This document shows positions 1-40,787 of a stretch of 63,691 nt of DNA, one piece after another (the first letter of the stretch is position 1; each line of letters opens with the position of its first letter). The DNA is from Desulfurococcaceae archaeon. GTDB taxonomy: Archaea > Thermoproteota > Thermoprotei_A > Sulfolobales > Desulfurococcaceae. Made by a program: the position numbers and the translations under genes. Under the pieces are notes generated by a model that made no database searches, was not told the DNA's origin, and worked only from the letters and a program-made list of their open reading frames with translations. The DNA lies in contig JAWBAI010000009.1 in the NCBI GenBank assembly GCA_038816475.1, positions 1-63,691 on the forward strand, read 5' to 3'.

Positions 1-331
1 CAGAGAAAGCACTAGTGGTTAAGGTTTCTCCACACAACACCTCTCGAACCTGCCCACGATGCGGGTACGTGGTAAAGACCCGAGTGGGCAGGATGTTCAA
101 ATGCCCAAAGTGCAGTCTCGAAATGGATAGGCAGAAGCTCGCATCCATAAACATCTACCTCAAGTACACCAAGATGTGGGGGTTTCCTCACAGCAATGAA
201 CCCAATGAGGGTGAGCTGTGGATTGGGGTTACCCTGAACGGGTGGAGACCAATGACATGGGCACCGATGAAAGGTGCCCCGAGGTCTATGAAGCCAAGGG
301 TTAAAATCAAACAACATGAAACCCGAACCCC
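1..331 (+). mobile_element. Right end of a tnpB-carrying element, including probable omegaRNA scaffold
   Basis: Identity with the second copy at 40795-41013 (-) stops at ...ATGAAACCCGAACCCC (331); hairpin GGGCACC-gatgaaa-GGTGCCC at 259-279. Confidence 0.75.
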
Positions 332-383
332 GAACCCTATGAGACCTATTCTCCACGTGCGCACGGTCACTCGGCTCACTTGA
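1..383 (+). CDS. tnpB: TnpB (IS200/605/607 family RNA-guided nuclease), C-terminal part, 5'-truncated by window edge
   Basis: VSPHNTSRTCPRCG...FKCPKC zinc ribbon followed by a RuvC-III-like DRQKLASINI motif. Confidence 0.9.
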   Translation, partial: EKALVVKVSPHNTSRTCPRCGYVVKTRVGRMFKCPKCSLEMDRQKLASINIYLKYTKMWGFPHSNEPNEGELWIGVTLNGWRPMTWAPMKGAPRSMKPRVKIKQHETRTPNPMRPILHVRTVTRLT

Positions 384-455
384 TTATACGAATTGGTTTC
401 GTTAATGGCTTCGAAACAGCGTCTCTGAGAATAAAAGCTGTGCTCGGGGCGTCCT

Positions 456-1805
456 CTACTTTCCAGCGACTTTAACCTTTCTTATCCACATTGAGGGTGT
501 ACCTGTATTGTCAACAATGTACACGTCTTCTCCGACTTCAACTAGGTTTCTAGATAACCACTCGTACACGTTTCCTCCTAGTACAACCCCTTTAACGGGC
601 TTCACGATGCTTCCTTTCTCGATGAGCAAACCGTGGGTTACGGTTGTTTTAACGCTACCTGTAACAGGGTCGCTCATCCAGTATCCTATAACCTCGTAAA
701 CAACGAGCCCTTTCTCGAGTTCCTCTGCGAACTTGTCCAGTTTGCCTTTCCCGGGTTTCACCACGAAGTTCGTGAAGCCTGGTACAGGATGTGTAGCCGG
801 TGATTGCCTTACACCGTTACCCGTTGGCTCAGTGTTCATTCTACGCGAGGTGTAGTAGCTCTGAAGTATTGTTGTGAACACACCCTTCTCTACAACAGGT
901 TTTGCTCTAGCTGGTACACCCTCATCGTCGAACGATCTCGTGCCTGTGGCACCCTTGAGGAAGGGGTCATCGATTATTGTCACTTTTTCGCTCATCACCA
1001 GCTGTCCATGCTTGTTTCTCAGAGGACTCCTGTTCTCGAGTATGTTCGAAGCTGAGAACGCTGGTGCTAGACTCGATGTGAGCACGAGGCCTGCAACGGA
1101 TGGGTCCAGTACTACGTCGTAGACTCCTGACTCAACAGGTTGCGCGTTGAAGAAGAGCATTGCTAGTTCACCTTCTCTGGTTGCTGCTTCAGCCAAAGCA
1201 TTCTCGTCAATGAGGTTTTTAGCGTAGACAAGAGTTTTACTCGAGGAAGATCCGTTCTTCTCCACGCTGAGAACAAGCCACAGTGAAACCTCGGTGTACA
1301 TCTCGCGGAGGTTCACTCCGTTGGAGTTGACTATGCTAAGCTCGGCTCTTGCAACCTCAAACATTCCCTCGGTAACCACAGCTTTCGTAGCACCCTTGGA
1401 GAGAGCTGGCTCTTTGAACATGTCCATAGTGTACTTCAGCACCTCCACGTACTCTTCCTCGCTCATGGAAGCTGTTCTCTCATCGTAGGTTTTCGGCTTC
1501 GCAACGAGCTTGTAAACTGGTGGAAAACCACCCCAGTACGGATCCTCCTGTGAAGCTCTGGTGATCGACAGGAGCTTTTCGAGAACACTGTCTACTTCTT
1601 CGAGAGTGTTAACCCTAATACTCCCTACTCTTCTTCCAACAGCTCCACGCAGACCTATGTCCAGTCGTTTTCTCCAAGAAGACTCGATCACTCTGTCGTT
1701 AGCCACCGTGAACTGAACCGTGGCCGATTCAACAGCGTAAACCTCAGCATCGCTTAATCCTTTGCCAACGGCTTTTTTAACCACAGTCTCGTAGTCTAGG
1801 CTCAT
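456..1805 (-). CDS. TldE/PmbA family protein
   Basis: FDDEGVP and PTGNG motifs, no HExxH; directly downstream of tldD. Confidence 0.9.
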   Translation of the reverse strand: MSLDYETVVKKAVGKGLSDAEVYAVESATVQFTVANDRVIESSWRKRLDIGLRGAVGRRVGSIRVNTLEEVDSVLEKLLSITRASQEDPYWGGFPPVYKLVAKPKTYDERTASMSEEEYVEVLKYTMDMFKEPALSKGATKAVVTEGMFEVARAELSIVNSNGVNLREMYTEVSLWLVLSVEKNGSSSSKTLVYAKNLIDENALAEAATREGELAMLFFNAQPVESGVYDVVLDPSVAGLVLTSSLAPAFSASNILENRSPLRNKHGQLVMSEKVTIIDDPFLKGATGTRSFDDEGVPARAKPVVEKGVFTTILQSYYTSRRMNTEPTGNGVRQSPATHPVPGFTNFVVKPGKGKLDKFAEELEKGLVVYEVIGYWMSDPVTGSVKTTVTHGLLIEKGSIVKPVKGVVLGGNVYEWLSRNLVEVGEDVYIVDNTGTPSMWIRKVKVAGK

Positions 1806-1807
1806 CG

Positions 1808-3220
1808 CTATCCACCTCCGATCGTGAATCCTCGTACTCTCACATGGGGTCCACCATCACCAACTCTAACTGTTTGCCCACCTTTCCCGCATCCGCCGAA
1901 CACGCTTGTTCTAACCACGAGGTCTCTGCCAACAGCGTCAACGTTCTTCAGAGTCTCCAGTATAAGCCCTGAGAGCATCACTCCCTTAACCAGCTGTTTC
2001 AGCTCCCCGTTCTCGATCAAGTAGCTTGGTCCACTGGTGAACGTGAAGGCTCCTGTGAGAGGGTTCACCTGGCCGCCCAGAGCACCTCTACCTCTCACGT
2101 ACAGGCCTCTTCTCGTATCCTTGATCATCTCCTCAACGCTCCAGTCCCCGGGCTCCATGTACGTGTTGGTTTGCCTAACGAGTATTGGGTCCTGGTAGCT
2201 CATCACGCGAGCATTCCCCGTAGGCTCCTGCTTTAGCATTTTAGCTGTTGTAAGGCTGTGTAGGAAGCCCACTAGAACACCGTTTTTCACAGTGTAGGTT
2301 TTCCTCTTTGGTGTTCCCTCGTCGTCGTAGGGTACGAGTACACCGCCCTCTACTAGTCCATCGTCTACTATTGAGACAAGGTCGCTTGCAACTTTCTTCC
2401 CTATTCTTCCTCCGAGAATGCTTCCACCCGCTAACACTATGTCACCTTCAGATGCGTGACCAAATGCTTCGTGGAGCATTAACCCAACCATGTCGTTGTC
2501 TAGCACTACGTCGTACCTACTCGGTTTAACTCTCTCGGCTCTAGCTGCTTCAACCACGAGCTTGGCTCTCTCTTTCACCCAATCGCTCCAGTTGATCGAC
2601 TTAATAAACTCCCAGCCAGCAACAGCCGATTCACTATCGTAGAGTGTTTCGTAAGCACCTTCAACGCTCGCTACAAGCCTCGCCGAAGCCCCGATCATCC
2701 TCCTAGTGAACTCAACGTAGTCCCCGTTGCTCGACACGTAGACTCTCTTGTCCTTCTCGAAACCGTACCTCAACGTAATACTCGAAAGCTCGCGAACCTC
2801 GCGTGCACAGTTGTACATGTCCCTGAGTAGTTCAACCTTCTCCGAGAAGTCAACGTTCTCCGGGTCTACAGTGTATGTGGACTCGAGAGAATCCTTCACG
2901 GTTCGTCGAGCGTAGAGATCCACGCTGAGAGAGTACTTCGAGGAGGCTTTAGCTAGCTTGAAAGCTCTCAGAACAGCATCTCTCACAGCGGTCTTCTCGA
3001 GGCTTGACGTGGAAGAGTAAGCTACGTATCCCTTGTATACAACTCTGACACCAACCCCTTGAACACTGTTAACTACGAAGTCTCTCACAACACCGTTATC
3101 GTATACAACCAGCTCACTGTAGTAGTACTGTATTCTTACATCAACGAAGTCTAAACCAAGCTCACCCTGGAGCCTAGCAATGAAGTCCAAGTCGATCAAG
3201 AACTCACCACCAAGATCCAA
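1808..3220 (-). CDS. tldD: TldD metalloprotease
   Basis: HEAFGH zinc motif, YDDEG, C-terminal GGCGKGGQ and GGPH. Confidence 0.93.
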   Translation of the reverse strand: MDLGGEFLIDLDFIARLQGELGLDFVDVRIQYYYSELVVYDNGVVRDFVVNSVQGVGVRVVYKGYVAYSSTSSLEKTAVRDAVLRAFKLAKASSKYSLSVDLYARRTVKDSLESTYTVDPENVDFSEKVELLRDMYNCAREVRELSSITLRYGFEKDKRVYVSSNGDYVEFTRRMIGASARLVASVEGAYETLYDSESAVAGWEFIKSINWSDWVKERAKLVVEAARAERVKPSRYDVVLDNDMVGLMLHEAFGHASEGDIVLAGGSILGGRIGKKVASDLVSIVDDGLVEGGVLVPYDDEGTPKRKTYTVKNGVLVGFLHSLTTAKMLKQEPTGNARVMSYQDPILVRQTNTYMEPGDWSVEEMIKDTRRGLYVRGRGALGGQVNPLTGAFTFTSGPSYLIENGELKQLVKGVMLSGLILETLKNVDAVGRDLVVRTSVFGGCGKGGQTVRVGDGGPHVRVRGFTIGGG

Positions 3221-3453
3221 GAAACACTCCGTCTAGCTAATAACTCTAGCTCCACGATCACCTCACAATAGAGAGGTGCACGAACGGTTAAATCTCCTCA
3301 CTCTGAAGACCAAAGGTTCCGAGTTGTAAATTCAATGCCTTGCGCATCTGCTGTTCAGGAGGTAGCTCGTCACGAAGAGGCTACAGTGTTGACCACGAAG
3401 AGCTCTTCAAATCGCATGGATGCCCACCTTATTTAATTGCCATGGATTAACCA

Positions 3454-4497
3454 TTGTGGGGGAATGAATTGAGCTCTGGCCGCGCAATGTGTGTAGGTTG
3501 CGGGAAGATCTGTTCAGCTTTACGCTTAGCACTGGTTCTTTCACTCCTCTTGTACTCGTTTTTCTCGTGGATACATCTCAGCGTGCAGGCATCGCAGAGT
3601 AACCCGTCTAGTACTTCGCGCGAAGATCTCTGTAGCTTCGTCGCATCTCTCTACAGGGATTTCGGTGAGTTTGGTTGCTGCGTTGAATCACCAGTGGTTG
3701 AACCAGACGTATGCTACACGTCCAGTAACCTTCTAGCGGAGTATGTTCTCAGAAACGTATGCGGTAAACCGGGCATCGCTGATAAGATCAAAAGGTTCCT
3801 GGAGAAGTACTCCTCCAGCTTCTACGACTACTACCAGGTTTTACTTGGGTTAAACTACTCCTTGCCCTTCACGGTTGTTGAACACGTTTTAGCCGATGTC
3901 GTTGACTCCGTTAGAGTTGTACACGTGAATAGAACTGAAACCGTGATCGAGGACTACTACGACTACGCTAACCTATTGGTTTACAAGGCGCTATTGCACA
4001 TTGCTCAAGGCGAGGAAAACGAAGCATTAAAGGAGTTGACCACGCTCAGCGAGATGTTCAACGGGTATGGGTTCGCGGATGCATACTACAGGGTATACGG
4101 AAAGTACGAAACGTACAAGGTAGCACTAGCTATCATAGCCTACAGAGCACTCGGACACGCATCGGAGGTGGAGAAGTACAGGAGCGTACTGGAGAAGATA
4201 AAGCCACTGGCAACACTCTACGAGCAAGGCTTCAAGGGCACAGGCGACTTGAACCTGGAAACAGCATCCCTGGTGCTAATAGCTCTCTACGGAGACCTAC
4301 ACGAACTAGTGAGGAAGCCAGAACCGAGAAACGAAGCCATCTCTCAGCTACCAGAGATTCTAGTAGTTGTACTCCCTGCTGTACTAACATTGTTAGCTAT
4401 TCTTTACACTGCATTCTGCAAGAAGTTCAAGCTCGGCCACAGAAAGTTTACAAAGCCTTTCAATTCTTTACATTGCATTCAGCACACAAAAGCGTAA
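3454..4497 (+). CDS. Secreted, membrane-anchored hypothetical protein
   Basis: N-terminal hydrophobic signal, C-terminal TM plus basic tail, Tyr/Asp-rich motifs (YYDYANL, YETYKVAL); start uncertain. Confidence 0.7.
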   Translation: MWGNELSSGRAMCVGCGKICSALRLALVLSLLLYSFFSWIHLSVQASQSNPSSTSREDLCSFVASLYRDFGEFGCCVESPVVEPDVCYTSSNLLAEYVLRNVCGKPGIADKIKRFLEKYSSSFYDYYQVLLGLNYSLPFTVVEHVLADVVDSVRVVHVNRTETVIEDYYDYANLLVYKALLHIAQGEENEALKELTTLSEMFNGYGFADAYYRVYGKYETYKVALAIIAYRALGHASEVEKYRSVLEKIKPLATLYEQGFKGTGDLNLETASLVLIALYGDLHELVRKPEPRNEAISQLPEILVVVLPAVLTLLAILYTAFCKKFKLGHRKFTKPFNSLHCIQHTKA

Positions 4498-4516
4498 GGG
4501 GTCTATGATGATCAAG

Positions 4517-4574
4517 CATTTAAGTTTTCTCCGTGATCAAGCGTGTGGAAAGTTCCATGGTGTTCATGGATGTT
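4517..4574 (+). repeat. Dispersed imperfect repeat, copy A (TTTAAG...TGATCAA...GTGGAAA...CATGGTG.TCATGGATGTT)
   Basis: Aligns with the reverse complement of 26740-26796. Confidence 0.6.
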
Positions 4575-4943
4575 CGAGAAAAGCCCATCAACAAGATGTA
4601 GCCACGATGCTTCCTGCGCTGATCAGGGATGATCGCATCATTGAATCAGGAGCAGTTTAATAATACGAGAGCAGTTTTTACTCGAGCAGTCGTGGAGCAG
4701 TTCATTAACCGGGTTTTACTTGTTGATCGATCATTCCTGCTCTGAACGGGACGTTCTACTGCAGCGTCTGGAAGCTTCGTGCCAATGACTTGAGCGTTTT
4801 CTAACCTGGTTATCTCGCAGATGCAACTATAGATACTGCTAAGTAAATGCTCCTCGTAAGCAATAATTGAGATTAAACCTGGAGGCCAGCCTTCACCTGT
4901 GCATCGCTTAGAGTGTGGAGTGCACGGTTTCCTGAATGATGGC

Positions 4944-5702
4944 TTAGCTCGCTGAGGATGCTAGCTGGTCGAGTACTCTGGTTACCTCGGAGAGTAGTTG
5001 TCTAGCCTTCTTTACCTCTTCGATAACGTTGTTCAGCTTCTCTGCAAGCATGTTTTTGTCCCTCGTGATCTCCTCTCGTTCTCTTCTAAGGGATTCCAGC
5101 TCGGATTCAACACTACTTAGTCTGCTTCTGAGATTTTCTATCTCGGATTCCTTGGTGGCTAGCTGTGTTCTAAGGTTTTCCACTTCAGCATCTCTACTGC
5201 TCAGTTTTGCTTTCAACTCCTCGTTCTCGCGTTTGAGGTTCTCCACCTGCTGTTCTAGTGCTTTAACCTGCTCTCGGAGTGCTTCAACTTCTCTTCGCAA
5301 CGCTTCCATCTGCTCCTCAGCACCTGCCACCGGTGCTCTTATGAAGGGTACTACTAGCCTGAGTTCACCCCGCTTCAGCTTCTCGTAGGTTTCAGCTACG
5401 AGCTTACCAGCTTTCGTTTTCTGCGCGAGATGGCTTCTCACAGTGGTCTCGGACCTGCCGATCTCCTCGGCTATTTGCGTGGTTGGCATTCCAGCCTTAT
5501 GCCTGGCGAACGCAGCAGCTGCAACAGCCAAGCTGTCTATCCAGGTTAATCTCTCAATGGGATCCTTGATGAGCTCGAGCACCTCGGGACTGTAGAGTAC
5601 ACCGATGATCAGCGCCATCTCGAGCTGCGTGATCTCCTTTTTACCCATGGGCTTCAAGGGGACGTTCGAAAGATCTATGTAGACCTCTTCGCTCAAGGTC
5701 AT
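4944..5702 (-). CDS. KaiC-associated HTH regulator (COG1318-like) with long C-terminal coiled coil
   Basis: ERLTWIDSLAVAAAAFAR..AG....IAEEIGRSETTVRSHL..KTKAGKLV signature; heptad tail; co-directional with kaiC. Confidence 0.85.
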   Translation of the reverse strand: MTLSEEVYIDLSNVPLKPMGKKEITQLEMALIIGVLYSPEVLELIKDPIERLTWIDSLAVAAAAFARHKAGMPTTQIAEEIGRSETTVRSHLAQKTKAGKLVAETYEKLKRGELRLVVPFIRAPVAGAEEQMEALRREVEALREQVKALEQQVENLKRENEELKAKLSSRDAEVENLRTQLATKESEIENLRSRLSSVESELESLRREREEITRDKNMLAEKLNNVIEEVKKARQLLSEVTRVLDQLASSAS

Positions 5703-5714
5703 TACCCCGGGAAA

Positions 5715-6446
5715 CTACCTGCTGTACTTTAGCACTTTGTCAGGGTGTACAACTATGCCTTTATCCGTGATCTCGAAGAGATGCCTCTTCATACTGTGGC
5801 TTGTACCTCTCATTTTCCACACAACCAGGCTTCTAACGAGTTCACCGTTGATCTCGTCGAGGTCAAGCCTCACGATACCATCAGCAGCGTGCTCTACACC
5901 GGGTCCTCCGAATCCTCTCTCGGTTACAGAAACCTGTGATACCAGGATACTGGTTGTTCCCATGCCCGAGAGAACCTTCTTGAGCTGGAGAACAACGCTT
6001 CTCGCAACCGACGGCTTTGTCAAGTACAGCGTTGAAACACTATCAACAACCACTCTCTGCGCATTCGTTTCCCTGATAGCCTCACGGAGAACATCCACAA
6101 GCTCGTTCACGCTATCAGGGTCCTTAACAACGTACTTCTCACGCTTAGCAGCTTCACCAACACCAGCAGTGAAGGCATCAACAACAGCGAATTTACCCTC
6201 CTGCTCGTACTGTTTAACATCCCAGCCGAAGTTCCTCATGTTAACTCTAACCTGAACCGGGTGCTCCTCGAGAGCAACGTAGATACCGGGTTCACCCATC
6301 TGCAGCCCATTCCACAGGAACTGCATTGAGAATATGCTCTTACCAGTACCCGGGCCCCCGCTCAACAGTACAACGTTCCTCCTCGGAATACCACCGTTCA
6401 ATATCTCATCGAAACCCGGTATACCTGTTTTAACGCGTTCAACCAT
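5715..6446 (-). CDS. Single-domain KaiC-like RecA-family ATPase
   Basis: TGIPGFD, Walker [12 protein letters not shown], Walker B VVVDS, KMRGT; likely start MVERVKTG at 6446. Confidence 0.93.
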
Positions 6447-6621
6447 GCAATAACACCCGTGACAAACACTAATCCATATTAAATATACAATATACAAAAC
6501 ACTTTTATACATTGAAAACTAACACGGTTACACGAGAAAAAGCTATGAAGTAGCGACTACTTGGTGAAATCATCTACAATCACAGCTCCCGTTGAATAGG
6601 ATTACGGGGTCATCTTCGAGG

Positions 6622-7770
6622 TTAACTACAAATTGCTCTTATCTTAGCCGCTTCCTTCGGGAGTAGATTAATCACTCTCGCTTTGTTTGAGCCGAGTATA
6701 CTGTTGCACAGTTTGCTCTTAAGCTCGTTGTAGTCCCTTACCACAAGGGTAAGCACGGGTTCAACGCGCTCAGCATCTACATCCTCTCGTTTAACACCAT
6801 GGTCATAGAACTCTATTCTAACCTCCTGCTTCTCCTTGAGCAAACTAGCAATTCTCTGCGAAGCCCCCAGCAGAGTGAGCGGTTCATTGTTCACTCTCAC
6901 GAAGCCTCCGTATCCATGTGTGAATCTGAACCATTTCAGCAGCTCGCGGATTTCATCGCCAAGAGCCTTGAAGCCCGGAGGTACACCACTCTCGACCATA
7001 CTGTAAGCTAGCAGAGCGTACACTTCTCTCGCATTCCTTTCGAGAAGCTTCAGTAGATTCTCGAGCAGTTTTAACGGAGAGTACGAGCGATCCTCAACAG
7101 GGTCGTAAGCTGACACCAGGAGGTCAAGCTTACCTACAATCTCCTTCAGCTCTCCGTATTCGCGAACTCTACTTGCAACCCTGTAAGGTGTATCTTCACC
7201 TGGTCTCTCACGTGCAACATACTCCGCGGCTAAGTCTACTACGTGGTGAAGAAGAGCGTACTCTAAAGCCCTCTTCTCAACAAGCAACCTAGTACCCTGG
7301 TGCAAGTACCATGCTAACACAAGCTTCTCTTCGAAAGTACCGCGTTCCCCCATCTCATCAAGATACACAGAGGCAGCTACACCGAAAAGCTCAACAGCTC
7401 TGCTCAGAGCAGGGTTCGCTTTCTCAAGCTCCATTAAGGGGTACTGAGAGCTTTGCTGAAGAGAAGCCCCCATGAACTGCTTGCTGAGGCTTCTCAGGTA
7501 GTTGCTGACATCGCCGAGAGCACCCTCCAGGTATCTTCTCAAATCCTCTAGTTGCTGTAGCAGAGTTCCATCGAGGGTTCTTGCTCCACGGAAGTAGTGT
7601 TTAACGAGGAGAGCAGCGAACCTTAAGCTGTCTCTTCTATCTTTTTCTCTTCCAACATCGTGCACGTAGTGTGTATCGATAAGCTCATCTACTCTGACGA
7701 GATCATCTGAGCAGTAGTTCCAGCCGAGGAGACGCCTGCAGATATCCAGGTGAACACTCCACGAGGGCAA
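6622..7770 (-). CDS. Hypothetical protein, putative Zn-dependent hydrolase (phospholipase C/P1-nuclease-like motif pattern)
   Basis: N-terminal MPSWSVH, D..HD and LHHVVD motifs; 382-aa open frame. Confidence 0.6.
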   Translation of the reverse strand: MPSWSVHLDICRRLLGWNYCSDDLVRVDELIDTHYVHDVGREKDRRDSLRFAALLVKHYFRGARTLDGTLLQQLEDLRRYLEGALGDVSNYLRSLSKQFMGASLQQSSQYPLMELEKANPALSRAVELFGVAASVYLDEMGERGTFEEKLVLAWYLHQGTRLLVEKRALEYALLHHVVDLAAEYVARERPGEDTPYRVASRVREYGELKEIVGKLDLLVSAYDPVEDRSYSPLKLLENLLKLLERNAREVYALLAYSMVESGVPPGFKALGDEIRELLKWFRFTHGYGGFVRVNNEPLTLLGASQRIASLLKEKQEVRIEFYDHGVKREDVDAERVEPVLTLVVRDYNELKSKLCNSILGSNKARVINLLPKEAAKIRAICS

Positions 7771-7933
7771 GAGAACACACCTACTGTGTATATCAGAAAC
7801 CCGAAGTATTTAAGGACCGTGAATGGTAAATTGAATTCGGAAGCGGGCTCGTGGTGCAGGTAATTTGTTTGCTTCAATAGCTGTTCTTTCTCTTGCCTAG
7901 CTTACGGTTAAATACACGCTACGTTAATGTAAT

Positions 7934-9283
7934 ATGGTAATGGTACAGGGATCTATGGGTAAGAACTCGGATTTCACCGAGGAAGTTGTTGAAAAGGACT
8001 TCGAGGAAATAGAGGACAGGTACGAGGTAGTTGAAGAGGACGCGGTAGTTACTCCTGATGAACCCTTCGAGAAGGTTAAGACCCGTGGCTACGAGAGGTT
8101 TAAAACCTACCTGCAGCTCTTTCAACGTGCTTTGCTAAGGTTTGAGGGTTACGTAGCGAAGCATCGTGATCAATGGTTTCTGGTAGCTGTACCCGGAGGT
8201 GAACCCGTTGTGAAACTAGTGTTTGAAACTAGTCCCCCTATACACAACTCCTACATAAAAGTAGATAGATACCGTGAACAACGGGACCCCGAAAGCGGAG
8301 CAAGAGTTATCGTTGTATACGACTGGAGTTACATTCCGTTTGAAGTAGAACCCCCCCGTGTAAGTCTCAGCGGCTTTGAATCAATGGTTCTAAACGGCGT
8401 GGAGTTCACTAACAAGATCTTCGAAGAGCTCTACGTATACCACTTGATAAGTTCACCTTTCATTGTAACTCAGAGCAGGAGATACTACATAGGTGGTTCA
8501 AGACTAGCTCTCTTTGGTGAACACTCAAGTAGCCTTGTGAGCGGTGTACTAGCGCTTAGAAACTACATGCACAAGCCTGTCTCATACGTGAGGGGAACGT
8601 ACGTGAACATCTTAGTGAAATCCCCCAGTAGCATCTTCGAGAAAGTAGCTACGAAAAACCAAAAGATAATAACCTCGGTGAACGCCCCGGTGGAGTCTAT
8701 TGGTATTGTTGAACGAGCACCCGTGGACTACAGCATAGATCCAGACGCAGTTGAGCTCATATTCTACTACAAGGTTGCATACCCAGTAATGTTCTTGAAT
8801 GACGAGGAGCTTGTCAGAAAAGAAGAACTTCTACTCAGAGATACGCTACGCAGAGTAGACCTTAGACCCTCGTTAAGGAAAATCATGAACACAGATCTCG
8901 AGGGGGCCATGCTCGCTGTTCTAAGACTTGCAACAGCTGTAGCTAGAACCAGAAGGTCTTCAATGGTCACCGAGGAAATCCTCAGCATTGCTCACAACAG
9001 GTTCTACGATGCACTCGAAGAGATCGCATGGGAGTTTGGATTAACCGGGGACATGATAACATTTAGATTAATGCACAAGGATATAGTCTGGATAATCGAG
9101 AAGTACGGGTTTGATGCTCAAGGAACTAAGTGTATCGAGGAAGAAGAGCTGGTGAAGAAGCTCGTAGAAGACTACAAGCTGAGTAGAAAAGAAGCAGAAG
9201 ATAGAGTAGAGAGAGCGCGGCGTTCAGGCGTAATATATAAACCGTACTGGAGCAGAGGTTTGCTCTGTTTAACAACACAATAA
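7934..9283 (+). CDS. Degenerate MCM-like protein (OB-like region, inactive AAA+, winged helix)
   Basis: LRLATAVARTRRSSMVTEE resembles the MCM lid helix; C-terminal EAEDRVERARRSGVIYKP resembles the MCM winged helix; no GKS/T Walker A. Confidence 0.6.
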   Translation: MVMVQGSMGKNSDFTEEVVEKDFEEIEDRYEVVEEDAVVTPDEPFEKVKTRGYERFKTYLQLFQRALLRFEGYVAKHRDQWFLVAVPGGEPVVKLVFETSPPIHNSYIKVDRYREQRDPESGARVIVVYDWSYIPFEVEPPRVSLSGFESMVLNGVEFTNKIFEELYVYHLISSPFIVTQSRRYYIGGSRLALFGEHSSSLVSGVLALRNYMHKPVSYVRGTYVNILVKSPSSIFEKVATKNQKIITSVNAPVESIGIVERAPVDYSIDPDAVELIFYYKVAYPVMFLNDEELVRKEELLLRDTLRRVDLRPSLRKIMNTDLEGAMLAVLRLATAVARTRRSSMVTEEILSIAHNRFYDALEEIAWEFGLTGDMITFRLMHKDIVWIIEKYGFDAQGTKCIEEEELVKKLVEDYKLSRKEAEDRVERARRSGVIYKPYWSRGLLCLTTQ

Positions 9284-9630: not shown

Positions 9631-10599
9631 CTACCGACTAGCATACAACCAGCACTTTACGTATCTGCTCTCTCCGACTCTAATAAACGGTGGTTCTTCC
9701 TTGGAGCATTTCTCAAACATAAATGGACATCGTGGATGTAGACGACAACCTTTTGGTGGATTTGCAGGGTCTCCTATTTCACCTTTAAGGTACACTTTCT
9801 CCAGTCCTATTTCTTCGCTAACTAACGGTATAGCACTCAGTAGTGCTTTTGTGTAGGGATGCAATGGTTCCTTTACGATGCTCTCTACGGGGCCTTCTTC
9901 AACTAGTTGTGCCAAGTACATTACACCAATTCTGTTAGCTATGAGGCTTAAGAGTACAATGTCGTGTGTAATGAACAAAATGGATTGACCATATTTCTTT
10001 TTGAAACCTAAGAGAAGCTCTATTATGGACGTTCTTATTGATGCATCAAGATTACTGGTGGGTTCATCTGCAACTATGTACTTTGGTTTTAGGATCATTG
10101 CACGAGCTATTACAGCTCTCTGTAATTGTCCTCCACTTAGTTCGTGAGGTCTTCTCCGAGCGAAGTCCTCTGAAGGTATTAAGCCAACCTCCTCCAGAGA
10201 CTTGTGAACATGCTCCATAGCTTCACTTTTACTCATTTCGTAGTGGATCATTAAGGGTTCAGCGATCGCTTCACCAATAGTCTGTATGGGGTTAATGGCA
10301 CTGTAGGGATCTTGTGGTATTAATTGCATTTCTCTTCTCAAAGATCTTAGAGCTCTTTCGGGTACTTTCGTGATATCAATACCTTTATAAACAACTCTAC
10401 CTTTAACAGGCTTGTACAATCTCAACGAGACCTTGCCAAGTGTAGATTTTCCACTACCACTTTCTCCAACCAGTCCGTAAATCTCACCTTCTAGTATCCT
10501 CAGAGAAACATGGTCAACCGCTCTTACTCTCTTCTTTCTTCCAAACAAACCAACCTCGAAATCCATGACTACGTTATCCAGTTCTAGGATTACGCTCAC
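9631..10599 (-). CDS. oppF: Oligopeptide ABC transporter ATPase (OppF/DppF)
   Basis: GESGSGKS, LSGGQ, ADEPT, HPYT, C-terminal GCRLHPRC Fe-S motif. Confidence 0.95.
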   Translation of the reverse strand: MSVILELDNVVMDFEVGLFGRKKRVRAVDHVSLRILEGEIYGLVGESGSGKSTLGKVSLRLYKPVKGRVVYKGIDITKVPERALRSLRREMQLIPQDPYSAINPIQTIGEAIAEPLMIHYEMSKSEAMEHVHKSLEEVGLIPSEDFARRRPHELSGGQLQRAVIARAMILKPKYIVADEPTSNLDASIRTSIIELLLGFKKKYGQSILFITHDIVLLSLIANRIGVMYLAQLVEEGPVESIVKEPLHPYTKALLSAIPLVSEEIGLEKVYLKGEIGDPANPPKGCRLHPRCPFMFEKCSKEEPPFIRVGESRYVKCWLYASR

Positions 10600-11555
10600 T
10601 CGCTATCACCAAGTAGATGACAAGCTACGAAGTGACCGCGTTTGACCTCTCTTAGAAGAGGTGTACTTAGCTTACACTTCTCCCGCGCGTACTTGCATCT
10701 CGGGTGAAAAACGCACCCAGATGGCGGGTTCCGTAGGTCTGGTGGATATCCCGGAAGAGACTTAGGAATTTTTCTCTGAGATATTCTTGGTAGCGACTCG
10801 AAGAGTGCTCTTGTGTAGGGATGTACCATGTTTGATACTAGTTCGTCTTTCTCAGCTAGTTCCATTACGTGACCACCATACATCACCATCACTGTATCAG
10901 CTCTTTCCAGCGCTAAAGCTAAGTCGTGTGTTATGAGAACTACTGAAGTACCTGCACGTTTTCTAATGTCATCAATCAAGTCCATTATTTGTCTTTGAAC
11001 GATAACATCGAGCGCTGTGGTTGGCTCATCTGCAACAACTACATCTGGGTTTAGTGCTACAGCCATCGCTATTGAAACCCTCTGCTTCTGGCCTCCACTG
11101 AGTTGATGAGGATACAAGTCTACAGTTCTCTCCGGTAAACCCACAGCTAGCAGAACCTCCTTGATCATAGACCTTGCCTTGGCCTGGTCAACACCATGCT
11201 CTAAGAGAAACTCCTCAAACTGTGAACCAACTTTTCTCAAGGGATCTAGTGTTGTGAAGGGGTCTTGAAAGATCATTGATACCCTGCTACCTCTGATCTT
11301 TCTGATTTCCTCGTTGCTTAACCTCAGTAAATCTAATCCATCAAGCAGTACTTGTCCTCGCACAACCCTACCTGGTTTCGGAACCATGTTTAGTAAAGCG
11401 TATCCCAGAGTAGATTTTCCACTACCACTTTCTCCAACTACAGCTATCATTTCACCTTTACGGAGTTGGAAACTTACACCTGAAACAGCGTGTACAATTC
11501 CACTCAGCGTGTAGTACTTAATCCATAGATCGCTTACTTCTAGTATCTTCCTCAA
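10596..11555 (-). CDS. oppD: Oligopeptide ABC transporter ATPase (OppD/DppD)
   Basis: GESGSGKS, YPHQLSGGQ, ADEPTTALD, HPYT. Confidence 0.95.
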   Translation of the reverse strand: MRKILEVSDLWIKYYTLSGIVHAVSGVSFQLRKGEMIAVVGESGSGKSTLGYALLNMVPKPGRVVRGQVLLDGLDLLRLSNEEIRKIRGSRVSMIFQDPFTTLDPLRKVGSQFEEFLLEHGVDQAKARSMIKEVLLAVGLPERTVDLYPHQLSGGQKQRVSIAMAVALNPDVVVADEPTTALDVIVQRQIMDLIDDIRKRAGTSVVLITHDLALALERADTVMVMYGGHVMELAEKDELVSNMVHPYTRALFESLPRISQRKIPKSLPGYPPDLRNPPSGCVFHPRCKYAREKCKLSTPLLREVKRGHFVACHLLGDSE

Positions 11556-11561
11556 GCTACC

Positions 11562-12395
11562 TTACCTCTTTAGCGATGATCTTGAAATACCTTCACTTAT
11601 AAGCGCAAAGCCTATTGCAAGTAGTGTAATCATGGCTCCTGGGAAGAGAAGCATCCACCATGCACCAGCTAGTACAAACCCTCTACCTTTGTAGAGATCA
11701 AACCCCCAGTCAGGTGTAGGTGGTTGAACTGTAAGACCCATGAAGCTTAATGCAGCCTCCGTGAGAATAGCATCTGCACTATTCATACTGAAAACAACCA
11801 TTAATGTTTGTGTTAGGTGTGGAAGAATATGCTTTAAGATTATTTTCGCTGGTGGTATTCCAAGAGCCTTAGCCATTTCGATAAAAAGCTCGTTCTTAAA
11901 ACTTAGAACTTGTCCTCTAATCATGCGGAAGTATGTTGGTATGTATACAACAGCTATTGCTATAGCAGCATTTAGAGGACTGGGACCCAGTGCAACGGAT
12001 AGTGCTATTGCTAGTATTAGAGGTGGAAAAGCATATATAGAGTCCATTACAAACGACAACACGCGGTCCGGGAGTCCACCAACGTAACCACTTATAAGCC
12101 CTAAAACTGTTCCTACAACTCCGCTCAAAGATACAGCAATCGCCACAATAGTAAGCATTATTCGTGAACCATAAATTACTCTTGACAATATATCTCGCCC
12201 AAGATTATCCGTTCCCATCAAGTACTGCAGAGAGGGTGGGTGAAGAGGTGGGCCCACGCTCTCGACCGGTGAGTACGGGGAGATGACATCGGCTAAGAGA
12301 GCCATCAACGCAAAGAACACTACTATGGCTAGCCCTACTAAGAAGTACAGGTTTCTAGTAATAGCTGAGCTTCCAAGTACTTTGTAGAAACGCAC
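11562..12395 (-). CDS. oppC: Oligopeptide ABC permease (OppC/DppC)
   Basis: GTDNLGRD, EAA-loop-like FIEMAKALG, PPTPDWG. Confidence 0.93.
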   Translation of the reverse strand: MRFYKVLGSSAITRNLYFLVGLAIVVFFALMALLADVISPYSPVESVGPPLHPPSLQYLMGTDNLGRDILSRVIYGSRIMLTIVAIAVSLSGVVGTVLGLISGYVGGLPDRVLSFVMDSIYAFPPLILAIALSVALGPSPLNAAIAIAVVYIPTYFRMIRGQVLSFKNELFIEMAKALGIPPAKIILKHILPHLTQTLMVVFSMNSADAILTEAALSFMGLTVQPPTPDWGFDLYKGRGFVLAGAWWMLLFPGAMITLLAIGFALISEGISRSSLKR

Positions 12396-13405
12396 TAGTA
12401 CCTCACCCTGGGATCTATTAGAGCGTAGATCAGGTCAACAATAAGGCTAGTTAGTCCAACTATTATCGCGAATATTATGATAACAGCTTGAATAGCTGTG
12501 TAATCACGATACATAACTTTATCAACTAGGTATGTTCCTATCCCAGGCCAGCTGAACGTTGTTTCTGTTAGTACAGCTCCTCCCATCAACAGTGCGAATT
12601 GTAAACCAGTATAGGTTACTATGGGTATGAGAACATGTTTAAACGCATGACGTAGAATACGTTCTTCTCTTACTCCTCTAGATCTATACGCTACTATGAT
12701 CTTGGATTCCATTATCTGCTCCATGTTGTTCAAAGTCAACCTCATGTATGGACCTGATATAACCAAACCCAGGGTAAAAGCCGGCAATACAATGTGCTTT
12801 AAAGCATCCAAGAACGCTACTAAATCCAGTTGAAGAACAGCATCTACTGTATATAGTCCTGTTACCGGTTTAATGAAGACTCCAGCGGATAATCTACCTC
12901 CGGTTGGTAATAAATTAAGCCATCTTGAAAACACGAGCTGTAAAGAGAGCCCGAGAGCGGGTATAAATAGCACGAAAACCACGGACCCGAGTAGCCTAGT
13001 AAATGCCTTAATAATTTCACTTCTACAACGAGCACTGAAGTAGCCTATACCTACGCCTATCATGATACTGAAGGCTATTGCCCAAATGGAGAGCTCTAGC
13101 GTTGCTGGTAATCTATCCCAAACATCGCGGGCTATCGGTCTTCCACGTATGATCATGGATTTCCCCATATCCCCCATGGTGAAGTTCAATAAGTACTCAA
13201 AGTACTGCAGGTAAAGTGGCTTATCTAAGCCAAGATCCCTCATAATAGCTTTCAGCTGCTCCTCTGGAATACTCTTTGTACCTAATGTTGCGAGCACCGG
13301 GTTACCTGGAAGTACTCTTAAAACAATGAATACCATCGTGTACAGAACAAGTATTGTTGGAATTATGAGTAGTGCTCTAATTAAAACATAGCGTACTAAC
13401 CCCAT
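12395..13405 (-). CDS. oppB: Oligopeptide ABC permease (OppB/DppB)
   Basis: GLDKPLYLQY, LPATLEL, ETTFSWPGIG, DPRVRY. Confidence 0.95.
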   Translation of the reverse strand: MGLVRYVLIRALLIIPTILVLYTMVFIVLRVLPGNPVLATLGTKSIPEEQLKAIMRDLGLDKPLYLQYFEYLLNFTMGDMGKSMIIRGRPIARDVWDRLPATLELSIWAIAFSIMIGVGIGYFSARCRSEIIKAFTRLLGSVVFVLFIPALGLSLQLVFSRWLNLLPTGGRLSAGVFIKPVTGLYTVDAVLQLDLVAFLDALKHIVLPAFTLGLVISGPYMRLTLNNMEQIMESKIIVAYRSRGVREERILRHAFKHVLIPIVTYTGLQFALLMGGAVLTETTFSWPGIGTYLVDKVMYRDYTAIQAVIIIFAIIVGLTSLIVDLIYALIDPRVRY

Positions 13406-13487
13406 TACTATAGCCCCGGGTTCTTATCTCCACGAGTTTACAGTAATAAAGCTATTTAAAATATGATGCACTACCTTATTATCTTGG

Positions 13488-15065
13488 GTGAGATCTTTGA
13501 AAAAGCGAATCCTAGTAGCTGTAGCTATTGCAATCGTAGTGATCATTGCAGTATTCGCGCTCCTCTTATACCCGAGAGCTCCAGTAACACCTGGTTATGC
13601 TGAAACAGTTGTTATAGGCGTAACTGATAAGGTTACAGACTTGGATCCCTCGAACGCCTACGACTTCTTTACATGGGAAGTTCTATCTAATATCATGGAG
13701 GGACTAGTTAAGTACAAGCCTGGAACGGATGAGCTAGTTCCAGGTATAGCTGAGAAGTGGGATGTTCTCGACAATGGTGCCGTTTGGATATTCTACTTGA
13801 AGAAGAACGTTACCATGTGCGATGGAAGACGAGTCAATGCACAGGACGTTGTTAGAAGCATTAAGCGTGTAATGACTATTCAGGGAGACCCATCTTGGCT
13901 TGTTACAGAGTTCGTCGAAGACGTAGTTGCTCTCGATGACTATACAGTTAAGTTTGTTCTCAAAACTCCAGCTAGCTACTTCTTAGCTGTTGTTGCTACT
14001 CCACCGTACTTCCCTGTGCATCCTAACTACCCGGACAATGAAATAGTGAGTGATGCAACATGGGGTGGTGCAGGTCCTTACTGTATAAAGGAGTTCAAGA
14101 GGGATGAGTACATAGTACTCGAGGCGAACCCGTACTATCACGGTGAACAACCCAAGACTAGAAGGGTGATCATAAAGTTTTACAGAGATGCTACAGCACT
14201 TAGACTAGCACTCGAGAAAGGTGAGATTGACATCGCGTGGAGAACACTAAGACCTCAGGACTACGTAGACCTTGCAAAGAATCCCAATTTCGTTGTTAGT
14301 TCAATACCTGGGACCTTCATAAGGTACATCATTATAAGTACGAAAATGGACCCGGTGAGCAACGTTCTTGTCAGAAGAGCAATAGCGGCAGCGATAAACA
14401 GAACAGAGCTTGCGGAGAGAGTGTTCTTCAATACAATGACACCACTCTACAGTCTTGTTCCAGCTGGTATGTGGAGTCACATTGATGCATTTAAGGAAAA
14501 GTATGGAACTGGACCTAATATTACACTAGCAAGAGAACTTCTTAGACAAGCAGGCTATAGTGAAGAGAACAAACTGTTGATAGAGCTATGGTATACTCCA
14601 ACACACTACGGTGATACAGAAGCGGATCTTGCAGCATTAATCAAAAGCCAGTTAGAAGCTACAGGTATGATCAGAGTTGAGATCAAGAGTGCTGAGTGGG
14701 CAACCTACGTGGACAATGCTAGAAACGCGAGAATGATGTTAAGTCTATTTGGCTGGTATCCAGACTACATAGACCCAGACAACTTCCTAACACCGTTCCT
14801 GATGAGCACAGCTAACAAGTGGACTGGCTCTCAATACGCGAATCCAACCGTTGATGATCTACTGAGAAACGCTATGATCGAGGTAGATAAAGACAAGAGA
14901 ATAACTATTTATGAGCAGGTTCAAAGAATACTAGCAGATGACGTTCCATTCATACCACTATTACAGGGTAACTTAATGATCGTGTATGCTAAGAACGTGC
15001 ATGACGTAATTGTAGGTCCACCAATGCTACTACCATACTATACAATATACAAGACCACAGGCTAA
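13488..15065 (+). CDS. Peptide ABC substrate-binding protein (SBP family 5), divergent from the permeases
   Basis: N-terminal TM anchor; LDP, EGLV, PGIAEKW, VRRAIAAAINR, GWYPDYIDPDNFL. Confidence 0.93.
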   Translation: MRSLKKRILVAVAIAIVVIIAVFALLLYPRAPVTPGYAETVVIGVTDKVTDLDPSNAYDFFTWEVLSNIMEGLVKYKPGTDELVPGIAEKWDVLDNGAVWIFYLKKNVTMCDGRRVNAQDVVRSIKRVMTIQGDPSWLVTEFVEDVVALDDYTVKFVLKTPASYFLAVVATPPYFPVHPNYPDNEIVSDATWGGAGPYCIKEFKRDEYIVLEANPYYHGEQPKTRRVIIKFYRDATALRLALEKGEIDIAWRTLRPQDYVDLAKNPNFVVSSIPGTFIRYIIISTKMDPVSNVLVRRAIAAAINRTELAERVFFNTMTPLYSLVPAGMWSHIDAFKEKYGTGPNITLARELLRQAGYSEENKLLIELWYTPTHYGDTEADLAALIKSQLEATGMIRVEIKSAEWATYVDNARNARMMLSLFGWYPDYIDPDNFLTPFLMSTANKWTGSQYANPTVDDLLRNAMIEVDKDKRITIYEQVQRILADDVPFIPLLQGNLMIVYAKNVHDVIVGPPMLLPYYTIYKTTG

Positions 15066-39830: not shown

Positions 39831-40787
39831 TTGATGCGGATGCGTCTTGTTACGTTTGATGAGTACCTTGAGTACGTCAAGAAGCGCAGAGGGGTAGTCG
39901 TCGAGGACACTGTGATCAGGGTTGGTGTGAAGCACGAGATCAAGGAGTACCAGCCAAGGGACTTTACACTTGAAACCACGACTGTTTGGAGCTTTCCTGA
40001 GAGGGGTGATTGGGCTACTCACAAAGGGGACTACAGAGGGAACTGGTCCCCAAGGCTTGTACGAAATCTCCTCCTGAGGTACACTAGGCCTGGTGAATGG
40101 GTATTGGATCAGATGTGTGGTAGTGGTACAACTCTTGTTGAGTGCAAGCTCCTGGGTAGAAACGCTATAGGAGTAGATATAAACTATGAAGCAGTGATCC
40201 TGACCTTGGACAGGTTGAACTTCACGTACAAACCACTCATCCCCGACTGGAAGGAGCCCGAGATCAGAGTGTATCATGGGGATGCTAGGAACCTTGACCT
40301 AATAGAAGATGAATCCATAGATTTCATTGCAACGCATCCGCCCTACTTCAACATTATACCCTACTCGAAGCGGAAACCAGTACCCGGAGACTTGTCTCAG
40401 GTGAGTAGCTTAGAGGAGTACCTTGTCGGCATGAGGAGGGTTGCCGAGGAGAGCTATAGGGTTCTGAAGCCTGGAAGGTACTGCGCGATACTCGTTGGTG
40501 ACACCAGGCAAAACAGGCACTACGTTCCCATAGCCTTCCGCGTCATGCAACAGTTCCTCGACGTTGGATTCATACTGAAGGAGAACATCATCAAGATCCA
40601 GTGGAACACCAGAGTTACAGAGCAACGGTGGAGAAAGCTGGTTAAATCCTCCTGCGAGTGCTGGGTTGAAGAGAACTGCGGAGGAAAGGACTTCTACCTG
40701 ATAGCCCACGAGCACCTCTTCATCTTTCGCAAACCCGAAAAGGGTGAGGACGTAAGCCAGTACAAGCTGAGCACGAAGTGGTGGTAG
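39831..40787 (+). CDS. Amino-DNA methyltransferase (N4-C/N6-A family), orphan in this window
   Basis: YRGNWSP, LDQMCGSGTT (SAM binding), THPPY (catalytic), VLKPG, HEHLFIFRK. Confidence 0.85.
   Translation: MMRMRLVTFDEYLEYVKKRRGVVVEDTVIRVGVKHEIKEYQPRDFTLETTTVWSFPERGDWATHKGDYRGNWSPRLVRNLLLRYTRPGEWVLDQMCGSGTTLVECKLLGRNAIGVDINYEAVILTLDRLNFTYKPLIPDWKEPEIRVYHGDARNLDLIEDESIDFIATHPPYFNIIPYSKRKPVPGDLSQVSSLEEYLVGMRRVAEESYRVLKPGRYCAILVGDTRQNRHYVPIAFRVMQQFLDVGFILKENIIKIQWNTRVTEQRWRKLVKSSCECWVEENCGGKDFYLIAHEHLFIFRKPEKGEDVSQYKLSTKWW

Follow-up and report, generated by a model that had tools for sequence, protein, structure and literature searches.

Initiation of DNA replication in archaea appears simple in the literature: one Orc1/Cdc6-type initiator recruits one homohexamer of the helicase MCM. 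In Sulfolobus islandicus, the winged helix (WH) of MCM binds the ATPase domain of Cdc6-1, which is required for initiation at oriC1 (PMC5333045), and ATP-bound Orc1-1 suffices for the recruitment of MCM (PMC12141716). Extra, divergent "shell" copies of MCM have also been described, as have inactivated paralogs of PolB and RecJ. In eukaryotes, MCMBP is a distant MCM relative without Walker A or B motifs or an arginine finger, and acts by binding MCM subunits (PMC10317167). Here we describe a gene found in a stretch of 63,691 nucleotides from a Desulfurococcaceae archaeon (contig JAWBAI010000009.1 of assembly GCA_038816475.1, positions 1 to 63,691 of the forward strand; hereafter the window), the product of which appears to be an MCM-derived paralog that has lost the motifs of the ATPase. 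As judged from the alignments and the model presented below, MCM homology combined with loss of catalysis is very probably the correct description of this protein.

The protein was compared with MCM by profile-profile alignment. The segment GGSRLALFGEHSSS paired with RGDIHVLIIGDPGTAKS, the Walker A lysine being replaced by leucine; G195-E-H-S-S-S-L-V202 lies opposite G351-D-P-G-T-A-K-S358 of the host MCM, and Lys357 corresponds to Leu201. Further aligned pairs were P175/P332 and G187/G343 (the glycine of RGD). Approximately 113 residues of MCM (372-484), which include the Walker B motif DEIDKM, sensor 1 and the SRFD arginine finger, have shrunk to approximately 41 (215-255). The strand VESIGIVERA aligned with MCM FDLIFIV, with no conserved arginine before the beta5-like VESIGIV, and the helix LRLATAVAR (R331, R338) aligned with MCM IRLAEAHAK. 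According to our own count from the alignment, the sensor-2 arginine column is occupied by glycine or alanine in the family. The Walker A pattern [AG]xxxxGK[ST] was found in none of the 22 members of the superfamily described below; the Walker B pattern hhhhD[DE] was absent from the window protein and occurred in two of the 22 at unrelated positions, so that none is conserved; and no CxxC of a zinc finger was present in the window protein (two cysteines in total) or conserved in the 22 members. Five residues (G72, P175, G188, P284 and R338) are invariant in all 22 members, which span two classes, and nine in an alignment of 14 members. Judged from the sequence, the centre of the ATPase core has been deleted rather than only point-mutated, and the A subdomain and the zinc finger are gone as well. 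The DNA-translocating hairpins of MCM lie in the core stretch which the paralog has dropped. Because Walker A and B, sensor 1, the arginine finger and, by our count, sensor 2 have been lost, alignment and modelling show a protein that should be unable to hydrolyse ATP or to translocate on DNA.

Curated libraries yielded only sub-threshold traces of this relationship: MCM_WH_arc at 15.3 bits (cut-off 26.1), MCM_lid at 15.2 bits, and the NCBIfam MCM model NF040949 at 12.7 bits against a cut-off of 940 (model positions 559-674). PF00493 gave no match at E <= 1 in the window protein, ten family members or five distant members; MCM_OB and MCM_N had no Pfam match in the window protein or the ten family members, five of which displayed MCM_lid below threshold. 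An exhaustive phmmer search over 1.84 billion representatives returned only eight relatives, and a word-index homolog search, with the single protein or the 14-member alignment, returned only its own cluster, as the index does not reach the relatives. When the family profile was run against PDB sequences, the top matches were MCM chains (Sulfolobus 4fdg, E 8.6e-7, profile 265-436 on chain 511-688; 8x7t, 1.1e-5), followed by MCM and RPA32 winged helices (2m45, E 1.9e-5; 2ma3) and then by eukaryotic Mcm7, Mcm4 and Mcm3. Over 351 genomes of the class, the same profile also recovered the C-termini of ordinary MCMs of 680-730 aa, down to E 4e-16. In hhalign comparisons, which were one-to-one (hence E = P), the family profile matched that of 30 MCMs of the order at 96.9% and E 1.4e-10 (residues 171-448 on MCM 328-703), and the 22-member superfamily profile did so at E 7.5e-13 (54-448 on MCM 111-703). 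Pieces scored separately were collinear with MCM: the WH at 6e-11, the lid at 2.5e-4, and residues 140-264 at 4.5e-3 (MCM 309-403), the last being marginal by sequence alone (P 0.0045-0.013). Lid and WH together gave P 1.7e-11, and the similarity is beyond chance for the C-terminal half. In a tree of lid plus WH, the 14 family rows were split from 41 MCM rows by a branch of 3.3 substitutions per site (SH-aLRT 98), with internal family branches 5-10 times longer than those of MCM; in this tree, which has no outgroup and gives neither donor nor date, the family was not nested in any sampled MCM lineage.

A single-sequence AlphaFold2 prediction was unusable (predicted local distance difference test, pLDDT, 39.6), and an alignment-based model was used instead, in which pLDDT falls below 50 at residues 1-49, 175-191, 215-253 and 371-379. 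All of the listed Foldseek matches to this model in the PDB were MCM subunits, the best with E 4.9e-5 over approximately 490 aligned columns; the low TM scores are what one expects when several domains are free to change their orientation. VIA-align superimposed model residues 136-368 on human MCM5 318-655 (Z 10.6, 190 residues at 4.4 A) and 66-366 on the 3f8t chain 107-492 (Z 8.9, 249 residues); the alignments reaching the MCM N-terminal domain were that to 3f8t and one to 9gjp_2 (model 64-377 on 304-859). When 48,161 chains were searched without Foldseek, seven of the top 50 matches spanned model residues 50-370 and all seven were MCMs (8q67_A, 3f8t_A, 8ouw_7, 3ja8_5, 4r7z_A, 8s09_3 and 6raw_2), while the other 43 covered only the WH (approximately 375-449) and were generic winged helices. 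No other AAA+ family was present among the body-spanning matches listed by this search or among the listed Foldseek PDB matches. The WH itself matched 2ma3 with Z 8.8 (67 residues at 2.7 A). A Foldseek search of BFVD was uninformative, its matches (E >= 3.9e-5, low TM scores) being helicase-primases and viral proteins without a name, and complex prediction from alignments of host MCM 110-625 and paralog 50-449 (ipSAE 0.00; two runs without controls) is evidence neither way.

An earlier sequence-only reading of the window had described this gene as an ATPase-dead MCM-like paralog, and profile-profile comparison, profile search of the PDB, recovery of genomic MCM C-termini and fold searches all agree with that description. 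The label nevertheless understates the loss: the motifs are missing as it said, and the middle of the core has been deleted too. The acidic N-terminus it pointed to is present, and the correspondence it drew between the LISSP segment and the MCM P-loop was borne out by the pairing of GEHSSSLV with GDPGTAKS. The ORF (open reading frame) contains LISSP, GGSRLALFGEHSSS, LRLATAVARTRRSSMVTEE and RRSGVIYKP; the lid-like helix assigned to LRLATAVARTRRSSMVTEE and the winged-helix-like end both found support, in the separate scores of lid and WH given above and in the match of the family profile to 4fdg 511-688. Its statement that Walker A lysine, Walker B DE and zinc finger are all lacking holds, and the structural comparison that it had proposed likewise came out in its favour, in that the lid-containing body resembles MCM and the WH resembles 2ma3. 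Of the beta-rich, OB-like segment, the strands were recovered in the model, and the sequence match to the OB fold was not significant. As shown in Table 1, the recognisable parts follow each other in MCM order; the protein carries a net charge of -9, and its WH +1.

Table 1. Positions in the window of the MCM-derived gene, the parts of its product and two adjacent features.
Feature	Position	Strand	Remarks
MCM-derived motif-less paralog	7934..9283	+	one uninterrupted ORF, 449 aa (stop codon counted in coordinates)
Acidic tail, residues 1-49	7934..8080	+	net charge -11; predicted disordered, pLDDT <50
Five-strand beta domain, residues 70-135	8141..8338	+	strands at 71-133 in the AlphaFold2 model; at MCM OB position
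AAA+ core remnant, residues 140-264	8351..8725	+	alpha0, beta1, alpha1, low-confidence linker, beta5
Dead P-loop GEHSSSLV, residues 195-202	8516..8539	+	profile-profile alignment to MCM Walker A GDPGTAKS
AAA+ lid, residues 265-370	8726..9043	+	includes LRLATAVAR helix (R331, R338); sensor-2 Arg position not conserved
MCM-type WH, residues 375-449	9056..9280	+	ends RSGVIYKP
TTAAATA, AT-rich box	7908..7914	+	approximately 20-26 nt 5' of first ATG; spotted by eye
Orphan gene, 382 aa, no family	6622..7770	-	divergently transcribed from the paralog

The paralog belongs to an unannotated superfamily of proteins of 417-494 aa, present in approximately 3-5% of the sampled genomes of Thermoproteota, in two classes. 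None of Pfam, NCBIfam, PHROGs and PADLOC has an entry for it. In the window's class, 14 of 351 genomes, distributed over four taxonomic families, carry a full-length or near-full-length member; within its genus the count is two of 17 genomes. Subgroup A, to which the window protein belongs, has an acidic N-terminus, the tail of residues 1-49 being conserved in this subgroup only (dN/dS, the ratio of nonsynonymous to synonymous substitution rates, 0.08); in subgroup B the N-terminus is basic and the beta domain shorter. Five more genomes, from other classes, came from a phylum-wide sample of 401; their ORFs are of 461-490 aa, and four of the five lie in the class of genome G492 (subgroup C). 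Subgroup C was present in 7/201 sampled genomes of that class and 16/301 of its order (two of these being fragments); its members carry the diagnostic motifs GY-V, ENSY-V-V-G, SSP...GG, YYGKP-S-IRLAL and G-IY-P, and gave sub-threshold matches to MCM_C, MCM_WH_arc and MCM_lid. The top three ESM Atlas matches were unnamed archaeal clusters, mostly of Methanobacteriota (412, 414 and 511 aa; 139, 81 and 464 members), at 0.96-0.97, and below these came viral MCM (0.88), MCMBP (0.82) and MCM5 (0.82), the tool's lead level being 0.9; the three clusters may be further dead-MCM-like families beyond Thermoproteota.

The frames of the 14 class members are open over 417-480 aa. For the pair G000/G009, dN/dS was 0.15, each of the five segments lying below 0.32; for G036/G199 it was 0.09, against 0.096 for the aminoacyl-tRNA synthetase gene next to it. 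The family is therefore under purifying selection and is not a decaying relic. Two broken copies were also seen: one member (L004/L043, G017:C121) is cut to 246 aa (151-891) and is followed by an ORF of 354+ aa (1283-2344) which by eye is of the TnpB/OrfB type found in insertion sequences (IS), and G022 holds a fragment of 73 codons with three stops. The genome survey also turned up canonical MCM frames of 965-2299 aa in ten genomes (G034, G039, G042, G047, G050, G052, G056, G057, G063 and G068), in which the PF00493 match is split into two to four pieces within one open frame, a pattern expected of intein-bearing MCM genes.

The neighbourhoods of the relatives were also compared. In three genomes, the member of subgroup B lies between MobB-FeS and dCTP deaminase, with HAD following the latter. 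For subgroup C, 12 loci with wide flanks were available. In G492 and G504, which belong to one genus of another class, the genes for GINS, MCM and a Hel308-like helicase follow the member in that order (spacing 0, -8 and 17 nt), and upstream of it the opposite strand carries RFC-S and RFC-L; the GINS-adjacent MCM is the sole MCM of each of these genomes. Elsewhere, a UvrD-like helicase gene lies 150 nt 3' of the member (G548), and a Cdc6/Orc1 gene 2.4 kb from it (G1021). One locus (L093, G1002:C9) contains at 197-7233 a module resembling a head-tailed provirus, with Phage_portal_3, DUF2213, a minor capsid/cement protein and a Linocin_M18/HK97-like capsid protein. In four loci a small, convergent, cysteine-rich ORF (83-129 aa) abuts or overlaps the 3' end of the distant member (L065 1106-1495, L094 7878-8129, L096 7826-8086 and L093 8561-8857); one of these matched Zn_ribbon_8 (E 1.6e-5).

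The source genome is 1.15 Mb in size and 92% complete, and the window is its contig 9. A single canonical MCM of 703 aa is encoded on contig 6, as the sequence-only reading had expected of a crenarchaeon. The nearest database protein to the paralog, 96% identical and from a metagenome-assembled genome of Desulfurococcaceae, is named just "hypothetical protein" and begins at Met8; for this reason translation may begin at ATG 7940 or 7955 instead, an uncertainty of at most seven codons. The TTAAATA box is a candidate archaeal TATA box of a leaderless mRNA, on inspection by eye. As the 382-aa orphan gene diverges from the paralog on one side and an ABC-transporter ATPase gene (9631-10599, -) converges on it from the other, the paralog is considered a lone transcription unit. 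The orphan gene displays the same 2/17 presence within the genus as the paralog, and the pair is kept in the same place in G009, so the two may form a two-gene accessory unit. As a conserved partner the orphan gene was rejected: it has four homologs and was not found beside other family members.

The remainder of the window is ordinary chromosome, its genes including TldD/PmbA, a coiled-coil protein and KaiC, an Opp-type ABC transporter, a P-type ATPase, an amylase and AOR. The coiled-coil protein, with a weak helix-turn-helix (4944-5702, -), adjoins a single-domain KaiC (5715-6512, -; thermo_KaiC_1, E 3.8e-136), and elsewhere in the genus (G002, G008 and G012) the synteny of the neighbourhood is confined to these two genes; no precise junction of gain or loss could be defined. 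In the sister genome G009 (L118, G009:C12, 10551-10838; compared with window positions 9631-15065), the ABC ATPase gene that separates the MCM-like gene from that of the P-type ATPase is reduced to a remnant of 108 aa; the Opp-type transporter operon, and in total approximately 10 kb, differ between the sister genomes. At the window's edge, a TnpB/Cas12f-like fragment (15-383, +; Cas12f1-like_TNB, E 7.6e-14) is truncated by the contig end. An N6/N4 DNA methyltransferase ORF (39831-40787, +; N6_N4_Mtase, E 3.9e-28) is also present, and the Pfam scan named no adjoining restriction enzyme.

One possible explanation for the persistence of such a protein, which we prefer tentatively while holding it to be somewhat short of probable, is that it takes part in helicase loading without catalysis, as a modulator or an adaptor. 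Of MCM, the protein still has the WH, the lid, strand beta1 with helix alpha1 and the last strand of the core, together with a beta domain at the OB position; gone are the A subdomain, the zinc finger, the arginine finger, Walker A, the core stretch in which MCM has Walker B and sensor 1, and, by our count, sensor 2. On this view, selection would have preserved contact surfaces of MCM, those of the WH, of the lid helix and of beta1 and alpha1 in the core, and a non-enzymatic accessory would use these MCM-like surfaces to bind MCM's own partners. The partner would be the initiator Orc1/Cdc6, the MCM-GINS assembly, or both; recruitment or activity of the helicase would be modulated, with the protein acting as a decoy or as an adaptor. 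Contact of the WH with the initiator is proposed because the WH is the best-kept domain and because the WH of Sulfolobus MCM contacts the ATPase domain of Orc1-1/Cdc6-1. Such a gene would be an accessory "shell" replication gene, often gained and lost, and not a core component. An extended version of this scenario, which we regard as unlikely, is that the superfamily represents undescribed, horizontally mobile "dead MCM" licensing factors of Thermoproteota, an independent counterpart of the eukaryotic regulators of the MCMBP/Cdt1 type. WH and lid would then dock on ATP-bound Orc1/Cdc6 or on MCM-GINS and decide on the loading of the single host MCM, by which means cells or mobile elements would throttle or hijack the initiation of replication.

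Several observations weigh against a role in helicase loading. The rarity of the gene (14/351, 7/201 and 16/301) argues against a general replication role, family scans found no replication genes within the 63-kb window, and no neighbour is conserved across the family. The adjacency to GINS and MCM amounts to one independent observation (two loci of 12, in one genus), and the proteins linked to GINS are only distant relatives of the window protein. Other distant members lie 1.6 kb from the portal/HK97-like capsid module (L093), beside a MobA/MobL relaxase (L097), beside AbiEii (L098) or beside a PIN toxin (L092). On the structural side, the model is middling (pLDDT 65, predicted TM score 0.60), and by sequence alone the beta domain does not match the MCM OB fold significantly (hhalign, P ~0.21). 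Z scores of 9-10 are likewise middling by the tool's own scale, and for this reason the fold argument rests on specificity for MCM and on agreement with the sequence profiles. The survey of occurrence and synteny suggested by the sequence-only reading gave a divided answer: the GINS-MCM-Hel308 cluster of one distant genus speaks for replication, whereas patchiness, and the fact that some distant copies adjoin provirus, relaxase or toxin-antitoxin genes, speaks for a mobile or accessory origin.

The neighbours just listed lead to an additional scenario, in which the protein is a tool of viruses, plasmids or integrated elements that capture or block the host's helicase loading to replicate themselves, or exclude rivals, the chromosomal copies being recent integrations or domesticated survivors. 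Given the provirus, relaxase and toxin neighbours, a mobile-element function fits as well as a host function, and rarity together with these element-like surroundings makes it possible that the real user is a mobile element; as an overall explanation we give it a minor share of the probability. The distribution is patchy at every level (2/17 in the genus, 14/351 in the class and 16/301 in another order), contexts vary, the window copy co-occurs with the orphan gene as a two-gene unit, internal branches exceed those of MCM 5-10-fold, and divergent "shell" MCM copies are stated to stem from integrated elements (PMC3914693). Conversely, the window protein had no relative among IMG/VR contigs, 50,697 phage records and 72,556 plasmid records, in a search which reaches close relatives only; matches to PHROGs (best E 1.5e-3, one of 14 members) and PADLOC (best E 3.7e-4, a CARF-WH model, one of 14 members) were not significant; the scans of the window found neither integrase nor virus genes; the chromosomal neighbourhood of subgroup B is stable in three genomes; and one genus has the gene in a core GINS-MCM operon. 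The WH and the OB-like domain might, alternatively, bind DNA in a repurposed regulator of transcription or chromatin unrelated to helicase loading, which we hold to be quite improbable. The WH is the best-conserved domain and resembles those of repressors as closely as that of MCM (MecI, Z 9.3; BlaI, 8.0), weak matches to TrmB, LexA, AbiEi and CARF-WH were seen, and Orc1-2 is an earlier case of a replication AAA+ protein that became a regulator (PMC9738581). The sequence of the WH is nonetheless specifically of the MCM type (E 6e-11; also 2m45, and the RPA32 WH), the protein is acidic with a WH near neutral, and a plain regulator would have no need of the lid and core remnants.

That the gene is a pseudogenised extra MCM without present function is very unlikely and largely refuted. 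All catalytic motifs are gone, the core has an internal deletion, and the truncated relative (L004) and the three-stop fragment (G022) show that copies can break; against decay stand the open frames of the 14 members, dN/dS values of 0.09-0.15, equal to that of the neighbouring aminoacyl-tRNA synthetase, and the nine invariant residues in 14 members and five across 22 members of two classes. Least probable of all is a generic resemblance, the protein combining a generic AAA+ lid with a generic winged helix unrelated to MCM. Such a view draws on the sub-threshold Pfam and NCBIfam matches, on the N-terminal 264 residues, which alone reach P ~0.01, and on the promiscuous matches of the WH. It is countered by the collinear alignment from P-loop to C-terminus, by the lack of any other AAA+ family among the listed body-spanning fold matches or the listed Foldseek PDB matches, and by MCM-specific positions common to both proteins (G187 and the G of RGD, G195/G351, and R331/R338 with the IRL..AHAR helix). 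We know of no dedicated archaeal helicase regulator. A selected protein that keeps the parts by which MCM contacts its partners and drops catalysis is a candidate for one, and equally possibly a device of mobile elements against the host helicase. If the proposed modulator of helicase loading is real, it would join eukaryotic MCMBP as a second, independent case in which an MCM has become a non-enzymatic factor of the MCM pathway; the family is small and thermostable and has clear partners, making this a directly testable question.

MCMBP is thus offered as a functional analogy and not as a family to which the protein belongs: it is specific to eukaryotes, and MCM binding by the window protein is only presumed. 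The parallel with MCMBP raised by the sequence-only reading did not extend to its profile, PF09739 (MCM_bind), which had no match at E <= 1 among ten family members. The "shell" MCM copies of archaeal integrated elements and plasmids (Krupovic et al. 2010, cited in PMC3914693 and PMC3984812) are also extra, fast-evolving and patchily distributed genes derived from MCM, in surroundings that are not conserved; in the accessible portions of these texts they are described as MCM homologs or paralogs and motif loss is unmentioned, whereas the window family has no ATPase site. The accessible literature on archaeal replication describes no motif-less, internally deleted MCM paralog of Thermoproteota, and the supplementary tables of shell copies in Raymann et al. 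2014 (PMC3914693) might list members under a different name. With canonical archaeal MCM (MCM_N, MCM_OB, PF00493, MCM_lid and MCM_WH_arc; the 703-aa host protein and 4fdg), the paralog has in common the order of domains, collinearity from residue 171 to the end, the WH ending G-x-IY-x-P and the lid helix R-x-A-x-x-x-A-R, and it differs from it in being approximately 250 residues shorter. MCM2 of Methanopyrus kandleri (3f8t), which Bae et al. reportedly described in 2009 as naturally inactive, is likewise a shortened archaeal MCM paralog that stands beside a canonical MCM, and aligned with the model over more residues than any other structure. Its host belongs to another phylum, the family profile does not match MCM2 at E <= 10, and, unlike MCM2, the window family has an internal deletion of the core and keeps the WH; the two are most likely independent degenerations of MCM.

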